DNA from: Escherichia phage vB_EcoM-RPN226 | Sequence record: OL770073.2 | Length of the DNA stretch: 64,000 nt | Strand: one strand, 5' to 3' | In this document: positions 32,351 to 59,676 of the stretch, piece after piece | Position numbering within the stretch: position 1 is the stretch's first letter | How the letters are laid out: each line of letters begins with the position of its first letter | The notes under the pieces: model-generated | Database searches by the model: none | What the model saw: the letters and a program-made list of their open reading frames with translations, nothing else | Told to the model about the DNA's origin: nothing | Made by a program: the position numbers and the translations under genes

Positions 32351-32423
32351 TGGGAATTAGCCAAGTTGGTAAGGCATAGCACTTTGACTGCTAGATGCAA
32401 AGGTTCGAGTCCTTTATTCCCAG
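32351..32423 (+). tRNA. tRNA-Gln (anticodon UUG)
   Basis: Manual fold: acceptor TGGGAAT/ATTCCCA, anticodon loop CTTTGAC, T-arm AAAGG-TTCGAGT-CCTTT. Confidence 0.85.
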
Positions 32424-32424
32424 C

Positions 32425-32511
32425 GCGAGAATGGTCAAATTGGTAAAGGCACAGCACTTAAAATGCTGCGGAATGATTTCCTTGTGGGTTCGAGTCCCAC
32501 TTCTCGTACCA
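32425..32511 (+). tRNA. tRNA-Leu (anticodon UAA), long variable arm, encoded CCA
   Basis: Acceptor GCGAGAA/TTCTCGT, anticodon TAA, T-loop GGTTCGAGTCC, 3' ACCA. Confidence 0.85.
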
Positions 32512-32517
32512 AAGTTT

Positions 32518-32589
<72 letters not shown>

Positions 32590-32601
32590 AAATTTAATTT
32601 A

Positions 32602-32675
32602 CTCCGTGTAGCTCAGTTTGGTAGAGCGTCTGCTTTGGGAGCAGAATGTCGCAGGTTCAAATCCTGCCGCGGAGA
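32602..32675 (+). tRNA. tRNA-Pro (anticodon UGG)
   Basis: Acceptor CTCCGTG/CGCGGAG, anticodon TGG, T-loop GGTTCAAATCC. Confidence 0.85.
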
Positions 32676-32677
32676 CT

Positions 32678-32764
32678 GGAGGCGTGGCAGAGTGGTTTAA
32701 TGCACCGGTCTTGAAAACCGGCAGTCGCTCCGGCGACTCATAGGTTCAAATCCTATCGCCTCCG
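32678..32764 (+). tRNA. tRNA-Ser (anticodon UGA), long variable arm
   Basis: Acceptor GGAGGCG/CGCCTCC, anticodon TGA, T-loop GGTTCAAATCC. Confidence 0.85.
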
Positions 32765-32771
32765 TAATTTC

Positions 32772-32844
32772 GCTGATTTAGCTCAGTAGGTAGAGCAACT
32801 CACTTGTAATGAGGATGTCGGCGGTTCGATTCCGTCAATCAGCA
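32772..32844 (+). tRNA. tRNA-Thr (anticodon UGU)
   Basis: Acceptor GCTGATT/AATCAGC, anticodon TGT, T-loop GGTTCGATTCC. Confidence 0.85.
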
Positions 32845-32850
32845 TATCAA

Positions 32851-32922
32851 GGCCCTGTAGCTGGAAGGTTCAAGCAAGCGACTCATAATCGCCAGATGGT
32901 GGTTCAATTCCACCCAGGGCCA
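32851..32922 (+). tRNA. tRNA-Ile (anticodon CAU, presumably lysidine-modified) or tRNA-Met
   Basis: Acceptor GGCCCTG/CAGGGCC, anticodon CAT, T-loop GGTTCAATTCC; T4 carries tRNA-Ile at this position. Confidence 0.75.
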
Positions 32923-32963
32923 TATTTTGGGAACATAAATACTCTTAGAAATAGGAGATATTT

Positions 32964-33629
32964 ATGTTCCATTACACTTATAAAATAACAAATAAAATTA
33001 ATAATAAAATCTATATAGGCGCTCATTCTACCGAAAATTTAGATGATGGATATATGGGTTCTGGTAAATTATTAAAAAGAGCCCAAGACAAGTATGGTAT
33101 AGAAAATTTCTCTAAAGAAATATTAGAGTTCTTTGACGATAAAACCTCTATGTTTGAGTCAGAAAAGAATATTGTGACTGAAGAGTTTTTAAAGCGCCCT
33201 GATGTTTATAATTTGAAATTAGGTGGTGAAGGTGGTTGGGACCATTTAAACACTAAAGAATATTTGGATAAAAAGAAAGAAGCTTCCTTAAAAGGGGCTG
33301 CTGCTTTTAAAACCAGATTTGAGAACGACCCAGACCTTAAAGAAAAATATCGTAAAATGGGTTCAGAAAGGTTTAAACAGCTTTGGGATAATCCTAAGTA
33401 TAGAGAGAAATTTTTAAATACTAAATCTTTCTTGGGTAAGACCCATACTCCTGAAACTATTAATAAAATGAAAGAATCTCACGCCAAAAATAAACACCAA
33501 CAAGGCGAAAAGAATTCCCAATTTGGTATGATGTGGATTCATTCATTAGATGAAAAAGTTTCTAAACGTATTAAGAAAACTGACCCAATTCCAGAAGGAT
33601 GGTTTAAAGGTCGAAAAATGAAATTTTAA
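32964..33629 (+). CDS. segB: GIY-YIG homing endonuclease SegB
   Basis: 221 aa; GIY-YIG motif YTYKITNKINNKIYIGAHS; located inside the tRNA cluster as T4 segB. Confidence 0.85.
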   Translation: MFHYTYKITNKINNKIYIGAHSTENLDDGYMGSGKLLKRAQDKYGIENFSKEILEFFDDKTSMFESEKNIVTEEFLKRPDVYNLKLGGEGGWDHLNTKEYLDKKKEASLKGAAAFKTRFENDPDLKEKYRKMGSERFKQLWDNPKYREKFLNTKSFLGKTHTPETINKMKESHAKNKHQQGEKNSQFGMMWIHSLDEKVSKRIKKTDPIPEGWFKGRKMKF

Positions 33630-33632
33630 TTA

Positions 33633-33709
<77 letters not shown>

Positions 33710-38096: not shown

Positions 38097-38899
<803 letters not shown>

Positions 38900-38900
38900 T

Positions 38901-38931
38901 GTTTACTTCCTCCAAGGACTTTGATACTATA
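38901..38931 (+). promoter_or_regulatory. T4-type early promoter
   Basis: GTTTAC...17 bp...GATACTAT. Confidence 0.55.
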
Positions 38932-38957
38932 CATTCATCAACTACTTGGAGGAAATT

Positions 38958-39032
38958 ATGACTCGTATCAATTTAACAACTTCAGAATTATTTCTGGTGG
39001 TAAGGCTTAAACAGTTTACGCTTAAGTATTAA
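38958..39032 (+). pseudogene. denV: truncated remnant of endonuclease V gene (denV)
   Basis: 24-codon ORF MTRINLTTSELFLVVRLKQFTLKY; first 11 residues resemble the recalled T4 DenV N-terminus MTRINLTLVSEL, then diverges and stops. Confidence 0.5.
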
Positions 39033-39043
39033 TATGATATAAT
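39014..39043 (+). promoter_or_regulatory. T4-type early promoter embedded in denV remnant
   Basis: GTTTAC...18 bp...TGATATAAT, 30 nt upstream of next gene. Confidence 0.55.
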
Positions 39044-39073
39044 TACTCTATCAAAACAAACAAGGAAACAAAA

Positions 39074-39670
39074 ATGAAAACGTATCAAGAATTTATCGCC
39101 GAAGCTTCTGTAGGAAAGGTCCAAGGCATTAATAAAGATGAGTGGACTTACCGAGGAAACGGCTTTGACAACCCAGGAAACGGCTTTGACCCTAAAACAG
39201 CCCCTATTGAACGGTATTTAGCTACAAAGGCTTCCGACTTTAAAGCTTTCGCCTGGAAAGGACTTCGCTGGCGTACCGACCTAAATATTGAAGTTGACGG
39301 ACTTAAATTTGCTCATATTGAAGATGTTGTTGCTAGTAACTTGGACGCAGCTTTTGTTAAAGCTGACTTTGACCTTCGTCGCTGGAATTTAAAACTGTTC
39401 TCTAAACAGAAAGGTCCTGTGTTTGTGCCTAAAGCTGGTAAATGGGTTATTGATAATAAATTAGCTAAGGCTGTCAACTACGCTGGTCTTGAATTCGCCA
39501 AGCACAAATCATCATGGAAAGGTCTTGATGCAATGGCTTTCCGTAAAGAATTTGCCGATGTTATGGCTAAAGGCGGCTTTAAGGCAGAAATAGACACCTC
39601 TAAAGGTATGTTTAAGGACGCTAATGTTCAGTACGCTTATGCCGTTGCTAATGCAGCCCGTGGTAATTAA
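39074..39670 (+). CDS. internal-protein-like head protein with capsid targeting sequence (IPIII-like size)
   Basis: N-terminus MKTYQEFIAEA matches the recalled T4 IP leader exactly; 198 aa. Confidence 0.7.
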   Translation: MKTYQEFIAEASVGKVQGINKDEWTYRGNGFDNPGNGFDPKTAPIERYLATKASDFKAFAWKGLRWRTDLNIEVDGLKFAHIEDVVASNLDAAFVKADFDLRRWNLKLFSKQKGPVFVPKAGKWVIDNKLAKAVNYAGLEFAKHKSSWKGLDAMAFRKEFADVMAKGGFKAEIDTSKGMFKDANVQYAYAVANAARGN

Positions 39671-39673
39671 TAA

Positions 39674-39691
39674 GGCCTATACTTAGGCCTA
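39674..39691 (+). terminator. terminator-like hairpin
   Basis: AGGCCTATACTTAGGCCT hairpin after stop; weak U-run. Confidence 0.4.
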
Positions 39692-39847
39692 TTTACATTC
39701 AAATAACATGGGAACAACCTGGACCTCATGATTCTATGAGGGATTCCCGCCAACCTGTAATAAGGTCGAGCCCAAGTGCGGTAATGGGTAAATACAGAAA
39801 TGGACAATTCACGCGCCATGGAATGGCCCAAATTTAGAGAGAATAAA

Positions 39848-40387
39848 ATGAGAACATTTTTAACTGGTCCTTATCTATCCCTGATGAATGCTTTTACACA
39901 CCATTCTGATGCTAGAGTAGAAGAAATTTGTAAGAACGGTTATGCCCCACCATTTGAAGACGTACTCAAGCAGTACTGTACACTTCGTTTAGACGGCGGC
40001 AGACAATCAGGTAAATCGACTGCAGTAACTAATTTTGCTGTTAATTGGCTGCACGACGGTGGAACAGTTATTGTTCTTTCTAATACTTCAGCTTATGCTA
40101 AAATTTCTGCTGGCAACATTAAAAAAGAATTTTCTCGTTATTCTAGCGATGATATTAGATTCCGTTTATTTACTGATTCTGTCCGTAGTTTTATTGGCAA
40201 TGAAGGTTCTAAATTCCGCGGATTAACGCTTTCTCGTATTCTGTATATAATTGACGAGCCTATTAAAGCTCCTGATATGGATAAGATTTACAATGTCCAT
40301 ATTAAAGCAATACAGCACTGCTGCAAAAGCAAATATTGCATCGGCGGTATTGCTCGTCCTCAATTTTTTGTGATTGGAATGCAATGA
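39848..40387 (+). CDS. small P-loop NTPase-like protein
   Basis: Walker A-like GGRQSGKST and Walker B-like LYIIDEP; start set at ATG after GAGAG RBS. Confidence 0.5.
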   Translation: MRTFLTGPYLSLMNAFTHHSDARVEEICKNGYAPPFEDVLKQYCTLRLDGGRQSGKSTAVTNFAVNWLHDGGTVIVLSNTSAYAKISAGNIKKEFSRYSSDDIRFRLFTDSVRSFIGNEGSKFRGLTLSRILYIIDEPIKAPDMDKIYNVHIKAIQHCCKSKYCIGGIARPQFFVIGMQ

Positions 40388-40692
40388 TGACCACTATTGA
40401 AGTTTTTGAGTATTGTTATAACAGCCCAGTATGCAATAAAAGGGCTGTTGTAGAAAATTACGAGATTTACCATTTTAAACCTAAACGATATCGTTTGACT
40501 AAAGGTCCGTTTGCAGGGCAGCAGGTTCTTTGTACTGCTCCTAATGCAAGATTAATGAATAAAATTCCATATTTTACCATGGAATTTATTGATGGGCCTT
40601 TTAAAGGACTAATCACACAGAGTTTAATGGCATATGATTCTGAGCCATTTTTAATTAAAGAGCAATCTTGGATAAATTTATTTTCTAATTGA
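40384..40692 (+). CDS. hypothetical protein
   Basis: ATGATGA overlap with upstream stop; about 102 aa. Confidence 0.5.
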
Positions 40693-40700
40693 GAGGTTAT

Positions 40701-41063
40701 ATGAAAGCATATCAAATTCTTGAAGGCACGCATAAAGGTACTATTTATTTTGAAGACGGTATTCAAGCACGAATTATTGTCTCTAAAACCTTTAAAGAGG
40801 ACTCTTTTGTAGACCCAGAAATTTTCTATGGTTTGCATGCCCGTGAAATTGAAATTGAGCAACAGCCTACAGTTAAAATTGAAGGTGGTCAACACCTGAA
40901 CGTTAACGTTCTGCGCCGTGAAACTCTGGAAGATGCAGTTAAGCATCCAGAAAAATATCCGCAGCTGACCATCCGTGTATCCGGTTATGCAGTTCGCTTT
41001 AACTCTCTGACTCCGGAACAGCAGCGCGACGTTATCGCTCGTACCTTTACCGAGAGTTTGTAA
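40701..41063 (+). CDS. autonomous glycyl radical cofactor (GrcA/YfiD-like)
   Basis: C-terminal glycine-radical motif [27 protein letters not shown]; about 120 aa as GrcA. Confidence 0.75.
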
Positions 41064-41284
41064 TGGCAAAGATAATTATTGAAGGTTCTGAAGATGTGCT
41101 AAATGCTTTCGCCGAGTGGTTTAGTAATTCAGGCGAACAGCAATTTAATGAAGCGTGGAACATGGGTGATATTAGTGGAATTTATCCTACGACAGAAATT
41201 TCTGTTCAGGGATATGGCATTCATGAACCTATTCATTTAGTTGAATATGATTTGGGTACTGGTGAGGAAGTAAAATATGATTGA
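41063..41284 (+). CDS. hypothetical protein
   Basis: 73 aa ORF, start overlaps upstream stop. Confidence 0.5.
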   Translation: MAKIIIEGSEDVLNAFAEWFSNSGEQQFNEAWNMGDISGIYPTTEISVQGYGIHEPIHLVEYDLGTGEEVKYD

Positions 41285-55065: not shown

Positions 55066-55539
55066 ATGTTATTGACTGGCAAATTGTACAAAGAAGAAAA
55101 ACAAAAATTTTATAATGCACAAAACGGTAAATGCTTAATTTGCCAACGAGAACTAAATCCTGATGTTCAAGCTAATCACCTTGACCATGACCATGAATTA
55201 AATGGACCGAAAGCTGGAAAGGTACGTGGATTGCTATGTAATCTCTGTAATGCTGCAGAAGGTCAAATGAAGCATAAATTCAATCGTTCTGGCTTAAAGG
55301 GACAAGGTGTTGATTATCTTGAATGGCTAGAAAATTTACTTACTTATTTAAAATCCGATTACACCCAAAATAATATTCACCCTAACTTCGTTGGAGATAA
55401 ATCAAAGGAATTTTCTCGTTTAGGAAAAGAGGAAATGATGGCTGAGATGCTTCAAAGAGGATTTGAATATAATGAATCTGACACTAAAACACAATTAATA
55501 GCTTCATTTAAGAAGCAGCTTAGAAAGAGTTTAAAATGA
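55066..55539 (+). CDS. 49: endonuclease VII (Holliday junction resolvase)
   Basis: 157 aa MLLTGKLYKEEKQKFYNAQNGKCLICQREL...; matches T4 gp49 as recalled. Confidence 0.9.
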   Translation: MLLTGKLYKEEKQKFYNAQNGKCLICQRELNPDVQANHLDHDHELNGPKAGKVRGLLCNLCNAAEGQMKHKFNRSGLKGQGVDYLEWLENLLTYLKSDYTQNNIHPNFVGDKSKEFSRLGKEEMMAEMLQRGFEYNESDTKTQLIASFKKQLRKSLK

Positions 55540-56079
55540 CAATTGAAAAAGAAATTGAAGGATTGATTCATAAAACTAATAAAGACCTTTTAAACGAGAA
55601 TGCTAATAAAGATTCTCGTGTTTTTCCAACTCAACGGGACCTTATGGCTGGTATTGTGTCTAAACACATTGCCAAAAATATGGTCCCGTCTTTTATTATG
55701 AAAGCGCATGAAAGCGGAATTATTCATTTCCATGATATTGATTATTCCCCTGCTCTTCCATTTACTAATTGCTGTTTAGTAGATTTAAAAGGAATGCTTG
55801 AGAACGGATTTAAGCTCGGTAATGCACAGATTGAAACTCCTAAATCAATCGGTGTTGCTACTGCAATTATGGCACAAATTACTGCACAGGTTGCTTCCCA
55901 TCAATATGGCGGAACGACTTTTGCGAATGTAGATAAAGTACTTTCTCCTTATGTTAAACGCACCTATGCAAAACATATTGAGGACGCAGAAAAATGGCAA
56001 ATCGCTGATGCGTTGAATTATGCCCAATCTAAAACAGAAAAAGATGTATACGATGCATTCCAAGCTTATGAGTTAACGT
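55536..56079 (+). CDS. nrdD: anaerobic ribonucleoside-triphosphate reductase NrdD, exon 1
   Basis: N-terminal 181 codons of NrdD; exon1+exon2 = 605 aa, the T4 NrdD length; junction inferred from frame, U/G splice rule and 1033-nt intron length. Confidence 0.75.
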
Positions 56080-57112
56080 AAGTCAAGCTCATGTAAAATC
56101 TGCCTAAAACGGGAAACTCTCACTGAGACAATCCGTTGCTAAATCAGCAGTAGCTGTAAATGCCCAACGACTATCCCTGATGAATGTAAGGGAGTAGGGT
56201 CAAGCGACCCGAAACGGCAGACAACTCTAAGAGTTGAAGATATAGTCTGAACTGCATGGTGACATGTAGCTGTTTATCCTCGTATAAATATGAATACGAG
56301 GTGAAACGATGAAATGGAAATTAAGAAAAAGCTTAAAAATTGCCAATTCTGTAGCATTTACCTATATGGTAAGATTTCCTGATAAGTCTTTTTATATAGG
56401 TTTTAAAAAATTCAAAACTATATATGGTAAAGATACAAATTGGAAAGAATACAATTCGTCATCTAAGCTTGTTAAAGAAAAGCTTAAAGATTATAAAGCT
56501 AAGTGGATAATTCTTCAAGTTTTTGATTCTTATGAATCGGCCCTTAAACATGAAGAAATGCTTATTAGGAAATATTTTAATAACGAATTTATTCTTAATA
56601 AATCTATAGGTGGATATAAATTTAACAAATATCCGGATTCAGAAGAACATAAGCAAAAACTTAGTAATGCCCATAAAGGTAAAATCTTATCTTTAAAACA
56701 TAAAGATAAGATACGAGAGAAATTGATTGAGCATTATAAAAATAATAGTAGAAGTGAAGCTCATGTTAAAAATAATATTGGTAGTAGAACGGCTAAAAAG
56801 ACTGTTTCTATAGCTTTAAAATCCGGAAATAAATTTAGAAGTTTTAAATCAGCTGCAAAATTTCTTAAATGCTCTGAAGAACAGGTTAGTAATCATCCAA
56901 ATGTTATAGATATAAAAATAACAATTCATCCCGTCCCAGAATATGTTAAAATAAATGACAATATCTATAAATCATTTGTGGATGCTGCTAAAGATTTAAA
57001 ACTCCACCCAAGTCGTATTAAAGATTTGTGTTTAGATGACAATTATCCAAATTACATTGTTTCATATAAACGGGTAGAGAAGTAGCGAACTCTACTGAAC
57101 ACATTGATGAAG
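56080..57112 (+). other. group I self-splicing intron in nrdD (1033 nt)
   Basis: Non-coding structured flanks (e.g. GGGTCAAGCGACCCGAAACGG...) around an internal ORF; boundaries inferred, not verified by folding. Confidence 0.65.
56309..57085 (+). CDS. intron-encoded endonuclease-like ORF (I-TevIII position)
   Basis: 258 aa ORF wholly inside the nrdD intron; weak GIY-YIG-like N-terminal pattern (FYIGF ... EEMLIRKY); family uncertain. Confidence 0.6.
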   Translation: MKWKLRKSLKIANSVAFTYMVRFPDKSFYIGFKKFKTIYGKDTNWKEYNSSSKLVKEKLKDYKAKWIILQVFDSYESALKHEEMLIRKYFNNEFILNKSIGGYKFNKYPDSEEHKQKLSNAHKGKILSLKHKDKIREKLIEHYKNNSRSEAHVKNNIGSRTAKKTVSIALKSGNKFRSFKSAAKFLKCSEEQVSNHPNVIDIKITIHPVPEYVKINDNIYKSFVDAAKDLKLHPSRIKDLCLDDNYPNYIVSYKRVEK

Positions 57113-58386
57113 TGAACACGTTATTCAGTTCAAATGGACAAACGCCTTTTGTAACAATTACATTTGGTACGGGAACTGACTGGACTGAACGAATGATTCA
57201 GAAAGCAATTCTGAAAAATCGCATTAAAGGTCTTGGTCGTGACGGGATAACTCCTATTTTCCCTAAGCTTGTTATGTTCGTTGAAGAGGGTGTCAATCTT
57301 TATAAAGACGATCCGAACTATGATATTAAGCAGCTTGCTCTAGAGTGTGCAAGTAAAAGAATGTATCCTGATATTATTTCAGCTAAGAACAATAAAGCTA
57401 TCACTGGTTCATCTATTCCTGTTTCTCCAATGGGTTGCCGTAGTTTCTTGGGCGTATGGAAAGATTCGACTGGTAATGAAATTCTTGATGGACGTAATAA
57501 TCTTGGCGTTGTAACACTGAATCTTCCTCGTATTGCATTAGATTCTTATATTGGAACACAGTTCAATGAACAGAAATTTGCCGAATTGTTCAATGAGAGA
57601 ATGGATTTATGTTTTGAAGCATTGATGTGTAGAATTAGTTCATTAAAAGGAGTTAAAGCTACTGTTGCTCCTATTCTTTACCAAGAAGGTGCATTCGGGG
57701 TTCGTCTTAAACCTGATGACGATATAATTGAGTTATTTAAAAACGGTAGAAGTTCAGTGTCCTTAGGATACATTGGTATTCACGAATTGAATATTCTTGT
57801 CGGTCGTGATATTGGACAGGAAATTTTAACTAAAATGAATGCTCGTCTTAAGCAGTGGACTGAAAGAACTGGTTTTGCTTTTAGCTTGTATTCTACACCT
57901 GCTGAAAACCTGTGCTATCGCTTCTGTAAACTTGATACCGAAAAATATGGAAGTGTAAAAGATGTTACTGATAAAGGTTGGTACACTAATAGTTTCCACG
58001 TTTCAGTAGAAGAAAATATTACTCCGTTTGAAAAGATTTCTCGCGAAGCCCCATATCATTTCATTGCGACAGGCGGTCACATTTCTTATGTTGAACTTCC
58101 TGATATGAAAAATAACCTAAAAGGTCTTGAGGCTGTATGGGATTATGCTGCACAACATTTAGATTATTTTGGTGTTAACATGCCAGTAGATAAATGTTTT
58201 ACGTGTGGAAGTACCCATGAAATGACTCCTACTGAAAACGGATTTGTTTGTTCTATTTGTGGAGAAACTGATCCTAAAAAGATGAACACAATAAGAAGAA
58301 CATGCGGATATCTTGGAACTCCTAGCGTTGTTCCATGGAATTTAGGTAAAATGAAAGAAATGGTAAAACGAGTAAAACATGCATAG
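57113..58386 (+). CDS. nrdD: anaerobic ribonucleoside-triphosphate reductase NrdD, exon 2
   Basis: Continues exon 1 frame; C-terminal Cys cluster CFTCGSTHEM...CSICG and glycyl radical region. Confidence 0.75.
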
Positions 58387-59209
58387 GTATTATATAATTT
58401 ATAAAATAACAAATATAATTAATTCAAAGGAATATATCGGTGCGCATAGCACCGATAACATAAATGACGGTTATATGGGGTCAGGAACATTGATTCGTGC
58501 CGCTTTATTAAAATATGGTAGAAAAAATTTTAATAAAGAAATTTTACATGTTTTTGATAATGAAAAACAAATGTATGATAAAGAAGCTGAACTTGTAACC
58601 GAAGAGTATTGTCTAAAAGAAAATACATATAATATTAAACCTGGTGGAAAAGGTGGAACTGCTTATGAACAGACACTTGAACATCGCCACAAAAATAGTT
58701 TAGCAAATAAAGGTAAAAAGAAAACGGCAGAAACTAAAATAGCTATTTCACGTGCTTTAAAGAAATATAAACGTACGCCAGAGCATCAAGCAAATTTAAA
58801 TAAAGCTGTAAGAATAGCTATGAAGCGAAAAGATGTTAGAAGTAAATTAACTGGAGAGCGTTCTGAGAAAGATAAATTATCTATATCAAACGGTGTTAAA
58901 AAATATTACAATTCTTTGAGCGAAGAAGAACGTGAACTGCATCGCAAGCGAATTATTGAAGGTAAAAAGAATTCTCCCATGTCATTGGAATCTAGACAAA
59001 AGCTTTCAAAAGCTTTAAAAGGACTTCAAGTTGGTTCAAAAAATCCAATGTATGGAAAAATTTCTCCAACTAGCAAAACCGTTTCAGTTGACGGTATTAA
59101 ATATGATTCAATTAAAAAGTGCTCAAATGCCATAAAAGTTTCTAGACATCTTATACTAAAACGCTGTAATTCTACTGATGAAGCTTGGAAAAATTGGATA
59201 TTATTATGA
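58379..59209 (+). CDS. GIY-YIG homing endonuclease, SegB paralogue, between nrdD and nrdG
   Basis: YIIYKITNIINSKEYIGAHSTDNINDGYMGSG nearly identical in pattern to SegB N-terminus at 32964; NUMOD-like C-terminal repeats. Confidence 0.8.
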   Translation: MHRYYIIYKITNIINSKEYIGAHSTDNINDGYMGSGTLIRAALLKYGRKNFNKEILHVFDNEKQMYDKEAELVTEEYCLKENTYNIKPGGKGGTAYEQTLEHRHKNSLANKGKKKTAETKIAISRALKKYKRTPEHQANLNKAVRIAMKRKDVRSKLTGERSEKDKLSISNGVKKYYNSLSEEERELHRKRIIEGKKNSPMSLESRQKLSKALKGLQVGSKNPMYGKISPTSKTVSVDGIKYDSIKKCSNAIKVSRHLILKRCNSTDEAWKNWILL

Positions 59210-59676
59210 ATTATGACAGAATATACCCGTGTTGCTTTGTGAATGGCCCTGGATGCAGGACCGTTCTTTTCGTCACAGGTTGTTTGCATAAATGCGAAGG
59301 GTGTTATAATAAATCAACATGGAATGCTAGAAATGGCGTTCCATTCACTGGTGAAACACTAGAACAATTAATTGAATGTTTGAATAATGATTATATAGAA
59401 GGATTAACTATAACTGGAGGAGACCCTCTCTATCCTGATAACCGAGATGTTGTTCATTGCATCGTTCAAACAGTAAAAAATCTTTATCCGAATAAAAGCA
59501 TTTGGTTGTGGACAGGATATAAGTTTGAAGATATTAAACAACTAGAAATGCTTAAATATGTTGATGTTATTATTGATGGGAAGTATGAGAAAAATCTTCC
59601 GACCAAAAAGCTGTGGCGAGGATCAGATAATCAGCGACTTTGGTCAAATACCGACGGGGTGTGGAAACATGATTAA
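59206..59676 (+). CDS. nrdG: anaerobic RNR activating protein (radical SAM)
   Basis: Start at MNYDRIYP gives 156 aa as T4 NrdG; Cys cluster CLHKCEGCYN. Confidence 0.85.
   Translation: MNYDRIYPCCFVNGPGCRTVLFVTGCLHKCEGCYNKSTWNARNGVPFTGETLEQLIECLNNDYIEGLTITGGDPLYPDNRDVVHCIVQTVKNLYPNKSIWLWTGYKFEDIKQLEMLKYVDVIIDGKYEKNLPTKKLWRGSDNQRLWSNTDGVWKHD

Follow-up and report, generated by a model that had tools for sequence, protein, structure and literature searches.

A mosaic vs.6/grcA gene in a T4-like Escherichia phage: a predicted pyruvate formate-lyase spare part with a host-like radical domain

The window analyzed here is a 64,000-nucleotide stretch of DNA from Escherichia phage vB_EcoM-RPN226 (sequence record OL770073.2), and the gene of interest is a short open reading frame whose 120-residue product has a computed molecular weight of 13.9 kDa. 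Its features are listed in Table 1, together with those of the nrdD and nrdG genes encoded in the same window. The gene is closely flanked on both sides: the Shine-Dalgarno-like GAGG is immediately 3′ of the stop codon of the upstream vs.7 homolog (40690-40692), and the stop codon overlaps the start of the next gene downstream, the vs.5 homolog (41063-41284). The opposite strand has an overlapping ORF of 200 aa (40467-41069), which has been treated as a chance ORF, as there is no annotation there in T4 and all of the homology is on the plus-strand ORF. A scan for promoters and terminators between positions 38500 and 42500 returned 10 promoter-like sites where 11.2 are expected.

The 10-kb stretch around the gene shares approximately 94-95% nucleotide identity with hundreds of Escherichia T-even phages, and T4 proteins fall on the window in the order of the T4 genome: e, ipIII, vs.8, vs.7, vs.6, vs.5, vs.4, vs.3, regB, vs.1, vs, tk.4 and tk, continuing with nrdC, pin, 49, nrdD, nrdG and nrdH. 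Judged by these similarities, the window belongs to a T4-like (Tequatrovirus) genome. Several features of the surrounding region can be noted in their own right. No homolog of T4 denV or ipII is present in the window, and in the interval 38600-39800 a 98-aa ORF (38603-38899) that matches the internal head protein family phrog_3499 is located between e and ipIII. The vs.8 homolog (39736-40387) matches T4 Vs.8 in two frames, with residues 1-32 at 39736-39831 and residues 26-219 at 39800-40384, which suggests either a frameshift or a shortened gene with an ATG start at 39800. The vs.5 homolog codes for 73 aa and matches phrog_1986 over its full length; the vs.5 gene annotated in T4 (58 aa) tracks this ORF for 17 residues and then follows another frame, and it looks as if the T4 annotation, or the T4 sequence, is the odd one out. 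Eight tRNA genes (Gln, Leu, Gly, Pro, Ser, Thr, one with a CAT anticodon, and Arg) are present at 32351-33709, as in T4, and this is where the GC content of the window reaches its maximum.

Table 1. Positions of the phage grcA gene, its parts and the nrdD/nrdG genes in the window
Feature	Coordinates	Strand	Remarks
Shine-Dalgarno-like GAGG	40693-40696	+	4 nt 5′ of the ATG; read from the sequence
Phage GrcA CDS, predicted (T4 vs.6/Y06I ortholog)	40701-41063, including stop	+	ATG, 120 codons, TAA
Phage-type 5′ half, residues 1-59	40701-40878	+	GC 0.34, GC3 0.23; 45% DNA identity to E. coli grcA
3′ block, probably host-derived; structured glycyl-radical domain	40879-41054	+	96-98% DNA identity to E. 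coli grcA; GC 0.49, GC3 0.44
GGT codon of Gly95, predicted radical-bearing glycine of RVSGY	40983-40985	+	In-register alignments with GrcA and PflB
TAATG stop/start overlap of grcA with the vs.5 homolog	41061-41065	+	Read from the sequence
nrdD, class III ribonucleotide reductase, two exons	55536-58386	+	Pfam NRDD and Gly_radical on both exon ORFs
nrdD exon 1 start	55536	+	Exon 2 is 57112-58386
I-TevII ORF in the nrdD group I intron	56309-57085	+	Protein 100% identical to that of T4; interruption as in T4
nrdG, radical-SAM activase of NrdD	59206-59676	+	Pfam Fer4_12 and Radical_SAM; 79% identity to T4 NrdG

The original prediction held that the C-terminus of this protein is the glycine-radical motif of E. 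coli GrcA (YfiD), the autonomous glycyl radical cofactor, and pairwise alignment bears this out. Residues 61-120 form an ungapped alignment with residues 68-127 of E. coli GrcA and are 100% identical to them, with the RVSGY motif included and in register, such that Gly95 is aligned with G102 of GrcA and with G734 of pyruvate formate-lyase (PflB), in the numbering of PMC12338860. The Pfam Gly_radical model (PF01228) matches the phage protein at 67 bits (cutoff 22.2, E value 2.5e-18), and the top structure in a PDB search is E. coli GrcA (6OWR, E value 9e-42), followed by the C-terminus of pyruvate formate-lyase (E value 5e-26), to which 49 of 63 residues (78%) are identical over PflB residues 697-759. 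Taken as sequence similarities, these three matches are far beyond chance.

Relationships of the N-terminal half are more distant. The best-scoring family for the protein is the NCBIfam equivalog model TIGR04365 (spare_glycyl), which aligns its positions 25-126 to residues 20-120 of the protein at 154.9 bits; this misses the cutoff of 170 by 15 bits because the N-terminal half is divergent. The match to phrog_1209 is full-length (211.5 bits, residues 1-120 against profile positions 1-121 of 121), although this family is still labeled 'unknown function'. We have also made a profile from the N-halves of 68 bacterial GrcA proteins, using 2,400 shuffled sequences as controls. The phage N-half scores 17.4 bits against this N-half-only profile, and all eight of the Tevenvirinae N-halves examined score between 16 and 24 bits, with every one of the 2,400 shuffled controls lower (maximum 12.3). 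The match is weak but consistent, and residues 1-59 are thus best described as a diverged GrcA N-half; in YfiD this half matters for the binding of cleaved pyruvate formate-lyase (PFL) and for activation. The features by which GrcA is defined are therefore present, namely a small standalone protein with the RVSGY domain in register and a GrcA-like N-half, and the prediction that the gene encodes an autonomous glycyl radical cofactor of the GrcA/YfiD type is supported.

Comparison with the known systems shows where the phage protein resembles them and where it departs. E. coli GrcA is likewise a standalone protein of approximately 14 kDa, and its N-half is related to that of the phage protein through the motifs ARxIVxK, F.ED and RE..vE..P.V, although the phage protein is 7 residues shorter and the similarity of the N-halves is weak. 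The two genes also differ in their settings, since E. coli grcA is next to ung/eamB and under the anaerobic and stress regulation of the host, whereas the phage gene is part of a tightly packed phage gene block. The C-terminal domain of PflB, with its Gly loop, flanking strand and helix, is the part that a spare part replaces and resembles that of the phage protein, but it is a domain within a 759-aa enzyme. GrcA2 and GrcA3 (NF008341 and NF038360) match the phage radical domain at 94 and 106 bits respectively, below their cutoffs of 145 and 158; they are proteins of about 80 aa that do not have the N-half.

The T4 counterpart of the gene is vs.6 (NP_049730.1), which is located between vs.7 and vs.5 as in the window and encodes a protein of equal length with 118 of 120 residues identical (98%). 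In RefSeq the T4 protein is named 'autonomous glycyl radical cofactor GrcA', in agreement with the phage-encoded GrcA/YfiD-like spare part that had been predicted. There are nine nucleotide differences between the two genes and two amino acid differences, residues 54 and 73 being Q and R in the window but P and H in T4; at residue 73 it is the window protein that has the E. coli residue. We take T4 Vs.6 to be the Y06I protein of the biochemical literature, and its RefSeq name, its calculated mass of 13.8 kDa (which fits a spare part of about 14 kDa) and the presence of a single copy per T4-like record in DNA searches are consistent with this.

Homologs of the gene are widespread: megablast matches 733 phage records and blastn 1,518, and more than 900 of the phage records have a complete, uninterrupted reading frame. 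The records include T4-like phages of Klebsiella, Enterobacter and Citrobacter, RB49, T5-like Demerecviridae, jumbo phages and Straboviridae, and many of the homologs are annotated as GrcA; the public labels vary, with 'pyruvate formate-lyase', '2-ketobutyrate formate-lyase', 'hypothetical protein' and 'ribonucleotide reductase subunit' also in use. An earlier comparison found vs.6 to be kept in six of six T4-like genomes, with a Gly_radical Pfam match (Nolan et al. 2006, PMC1524935). The identification of the gene is already known, and vs.6/Y06I has been a textbook spare part since 2001.

YfiD and T4 Y06I are described in PMC8683613 as the only validated spare-part proteins. According to the same text, which cites Wagner et al. 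2001, both acquire a glycyl radical from the PFL activase and restore oxygen-cleaved PFL, in the case of Y06I in vitro; a 2026 review (PMC13450708) also cites Wagner et al. 2001 for Y06I as a validated spare part activated by PFL-AE. The structured half of the YfiD spare part has been mapped by NMR to residues 61-127 and consists of a beta-strand, the Gly loop and a helix, and the residues of GrcA that are identical in the phage protein (68-127) make up most of this domain. A spare-part function for the window protein is thus proposed by analogy with the published experiments on its T4 ortholog.

By that analogy, the protein would act by the route that is established for YfiD of E. coli and has been reported for Y06I. 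When oxygen meets PflB carrying the Gly734 radical, the chain is cut at Gly734 and the enzyme left dead. The small phage protein would then bind the cleaved PflB, with its C-terminal beta-strand, Gly loop and helix replacing the lost C-terminus, and the host radical-SAM enzyme PflA would install a radical on Gly95. From there the radical would be passed to Cys419 of PflB and the production of acetyl-CoA and formate would resume, as presumably would ATP production via Pta-AckA. Because the phage radical domain is identical to that of the host, it should be recognized identically by the host PflA and PflB. With its gene expression shut off by the T-even phage, an infected host could not induce grcA when its PFL is damaged, and we infer that this is why the phage carries a copy of its own, which would keep fermentative energy metabolism going in microaerobic hosts, gut bacteria for example.

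The original prediction also pointed to NrdD and NrdG in the same window, and both are indeed encoded there (Table 1). In the interval 58379-59676, a 276-aa ORF between nrdD and nrdG contains NUMOD3 and I-TevI-type DNA-binding motifs, and the HNH endonuclease gene mobC is found at this place in T4. We also note that NrdG is only 79% identical to its T4 counterpart, whereas the products of the nearby genes 49, nrdH and I-TevII are 99-100% identical to theirs. The presence of NrdD and NrdG prompts one to ask whether the small protein might instead serve the phage NrdD as a spare radical domain or as its partner, activated by the phage NrdG. Such a role would fit with the suggestion, made from the Pfam match, of a function in nucleotide metabolism (Nolan et al. 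2006, PMC1524935), with the oxygen sensitivity of glycyl radical enzymes including NrdD (a general statement in PMC8683613), and with the arrangement in jumbo phage A4, where the grcA homolog is between nrdD and nrdG. However, a BLASTP comparison of the phage protein with the product of nrdD exon 2 in the window gives no significant similarity (E value 1.4) and leaves the two Gly loops unaligned, and the domain is that of GrcA, with 78% identity to the PflB C-terminus and DNA that appears to come from host grcA. Moreover, nrdD and nrdG are located downstream of grcA at a distance of approximately 14.5 kb and about 30 genes, and the activator and target published for Y06I (PMC8683613) are PFL-AE and PFL, not NrdG. 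The phage protein therefore fits PFL and not NrdD as far as its sequence goes, and we regard a partnership with NrdD as very unlikely. Of the 'glycyl-radical module' originally envisaged, all of the genes are present but the functional unit is not upheld, and the link between grcA and NrdD/NrdG is a thematic one, that of life without oxygen. The A4 genome (Escherichia, Asteriusvirus) is the sole context we have seen that hints at a link of grcA to anaerobic ribonucleotide reductase; the homolog is directly between the two genes (locus L091:327-689), and its codons are fully phage-like with a GC3 of 0.15.

At the DNA level, the phage grcA gene is a mosaic. A search of 5,426 complete E. coli genomes shows that it matches grcA at nucleotides 179-363 only, with 96.8% identity, and a three-way alignment puts the identity to E. 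coli grcA at 45.5% over the 5′ 178 nt and at 96.8% over the 3′ 185 nt (Fisher p 1e-30). T4 vs.6 is mosaic with E. coli grcA in the same manner, with 3 mismatches in the 3′ 185 nt. Between the 183-nt block and K-12 there are 7 differences, of which all 7 are synonymous. The composition changes as well, with a GC3 of 0.23 in the 5′ half and 0.44 in the 3′ half, the latter being the value for E. coli grcA itself, and a local GC peak of 0.50 over the 3′ block in a window with a GC content of 0.355. In a megablast search with positions 28000-52999 of the window, the 3′ block is the best match in every one of the 5,426 E. coli genomes, and pflB is the sole other E. coli match among the matches listed. 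We have rejected pflB as the DNA donor, as its 3′ end is only 78% identical to the block, compared with 96-98% for grcA.

Both junctions of the mosaic are in frame and lie inside a homologous gene. The left edge at 40879 is near the start of the structured domain, with the block beginning at YfiD residue 67 and the domain at residue 61. The right edge is approximate (41048-41056), the last 8-10 nt or so of grcA being phage-type (AGT TTG, in place of AGC CTG in the host) with the TAATG overlap with vs.5 kept. Because the N-half is GrcA-like and the junctions are in frame, the structure favors conversion of a pre-existing homolog over capture of a fragment, and the simplest reading is that an old phage grcA has undergone gene conversion by the host gene, rather than that a captured fragment was fused. 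We consider it very probable overall that the ORF is the T4 vs.6/Y06I ortholog and a PFL spare part, and that it is an old phage grcA in which recombination with host grcA has replaced the half encoding the radical domain.

If the block is of host origin, it should be asked which host it resembles in different phage lineages. A genome scan supplied 80 bacterial grcA loci for comparison, to which those of K-12 and K. pneumoniae were added; identities over the first 171 nt of the block are shown for four phages in Table 2. The blocks of the window, T4 and the Mosigvirus DCP548 are 91-92% identical to grcA of Citrobacter amalonaticus. In Klebsiella phage JIPh_Kp122, the first 107 nt of the block are identical to K. 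pneumoniae grcA (L083:581-753 against L095), and GC3 is 0.59 in the block as compared with 0.23 in the 5′ half. The same division is seen in the larger collection, in which 632 phage records match E. coli grcA at 95-99% and 106 match K. pneumoniae grcA at 95-99%, the latter all being Klebsiella phages among the matches listed, whereas the E. coli phages are 85-88% identical to K. pneumoniae grcA. Salmonella grcA has no match above 84% in the phage collection.

Table 2. Nucleotide identity of the 3′ block to bacterial grcA genes (first 171 nt)
Block	E. coli grcA	K. pneumoniae grcA	Salmonella grcA
This window	97.7%	87.1%	82.5%
T4	98.8%	87.1%	82.5%
Mosigvirus DCP548	100%	88.3%	82.5%
Klebsiella phage JIPh_Kp122 (Jiaodavirus)	88.3%	95.9%	86.0%
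E. coli grcA itself		88.3%	82.5%

Because the blocks have the composition of host DNA, and each is closer to one host grcA than the host grcA genes are to each other, the direction of transfer is from host to phage. That the host species differ among themselves, with identities of 82-88%, argues that the likeness of phage and host reflects ancestry and not constraint. The patterns point to at least two independent host-to-phage gene conversions, with E. coli as the putative donor in Tequatrovirus and Mosigvirus and K. pneumoniae in Jiaodavirus. At least some of the conversions are younger than the split between the first two genera, since there is an 11% difference between Tequatrovirus and Mosigvirus in the 5′ half and yet a Mosigvirus 3′ block is identical to that of K-12. 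While the left edge is shared by every lineage, this could simply mark the position at which homology starts and would then be uninformative as to the number of conversions.

Not all lineages have a host-matched block. It is absent from Karamvirus (78%), RB49 (75-80%), the T5-like phages (about 75%) and jumbo phage A4 (69%), and Pseudotevenvirus/Slopekvirus-like phages of Klebsiella and Citrobacter have no host match either, with identities of 80-85% to whichever of 83 bacterial grcA genes is compared; in all of these groups the codons are more or fully phage-like. In addition, Tequatroviruses isolated on Yersinia, Salmonella, Serratia and Citrobacter retain the E. coli-type block, and because it is kept regardless of the host used for isolation, the matching follows the phage genus and not the isolation host. 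We think it likely, though with less assurance than for the identity and mosaic origin of the gene, that the radical-domain half has been repeatedly overwritten from the chromosomal grcA of the current host and that the phage-specific N-half has never been replaced. T4 is able to recombine with short homologous inserts in plasmids, and the pattern may be a neutral by-product of recombination with fragments of host DNA rather than an adaptation. We found no description of the host-matched mosaic, or of a vs.6 phenotype, in the searchable literature, a search outside which both Wagner 2001 and the 2003 T4 genome review fall.

The near identity of the 3′ half to host DNA, its host-like composition, and its being the sole host-like stretch in 25 kb among the matches listed would also be expected of a functionless passenger, a scrap of host DNA left by recombination and carried without selection. 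Nonetheless, more than 900 records have an unbroken frame of full length, Tevenvirinae genera share a conserved phage-type 5′ half that is still GrcA-like, and the differences in the block are all synonymous. The lineages without recent conversion (Karamvirus, RB49, the T5-like phages and A4) keep the motif in phage-like codons, which shows long-term purifying selection, and the T4 protein is active in vitro according to PMC8683613; we thus find a passenger extremely improbable. There is equally scant likelihood that the protein is a decoy which titrates host PflA or occupies PflB so as to shut down or redirect pyruvate metabolism, for although the divergent N-half could alter the engagement of PFL (in YfiD this half governs binding and activation), the catalytic domain is identical to the functional one of the host, and Y06I is reported, in PMC8683613, to restore PFL activity as YfiD does.

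As a predicted PFL spare part in a virulent phage, the gene illustrates that such phages bring along parts with which host central metabolism can be repaired, presumably since the infected cell is no longer able to make them. The inconsistent GenBank labels for grcA homologs are a practical point for annotation. The presence of host-matched blocks in two sister genera suggests that T-even phages, though they destroy the DNA of the host, exchange short homologous segments with it in nature, and the mosaic block may serve as a built-in marker of host history in this group. If recurrent conversion is true, it would provide a natural example of a virulent T-even phage recombining with the host chromosome, and it would mean that the phage spare part stays matched to the PflB and PflA of its host.
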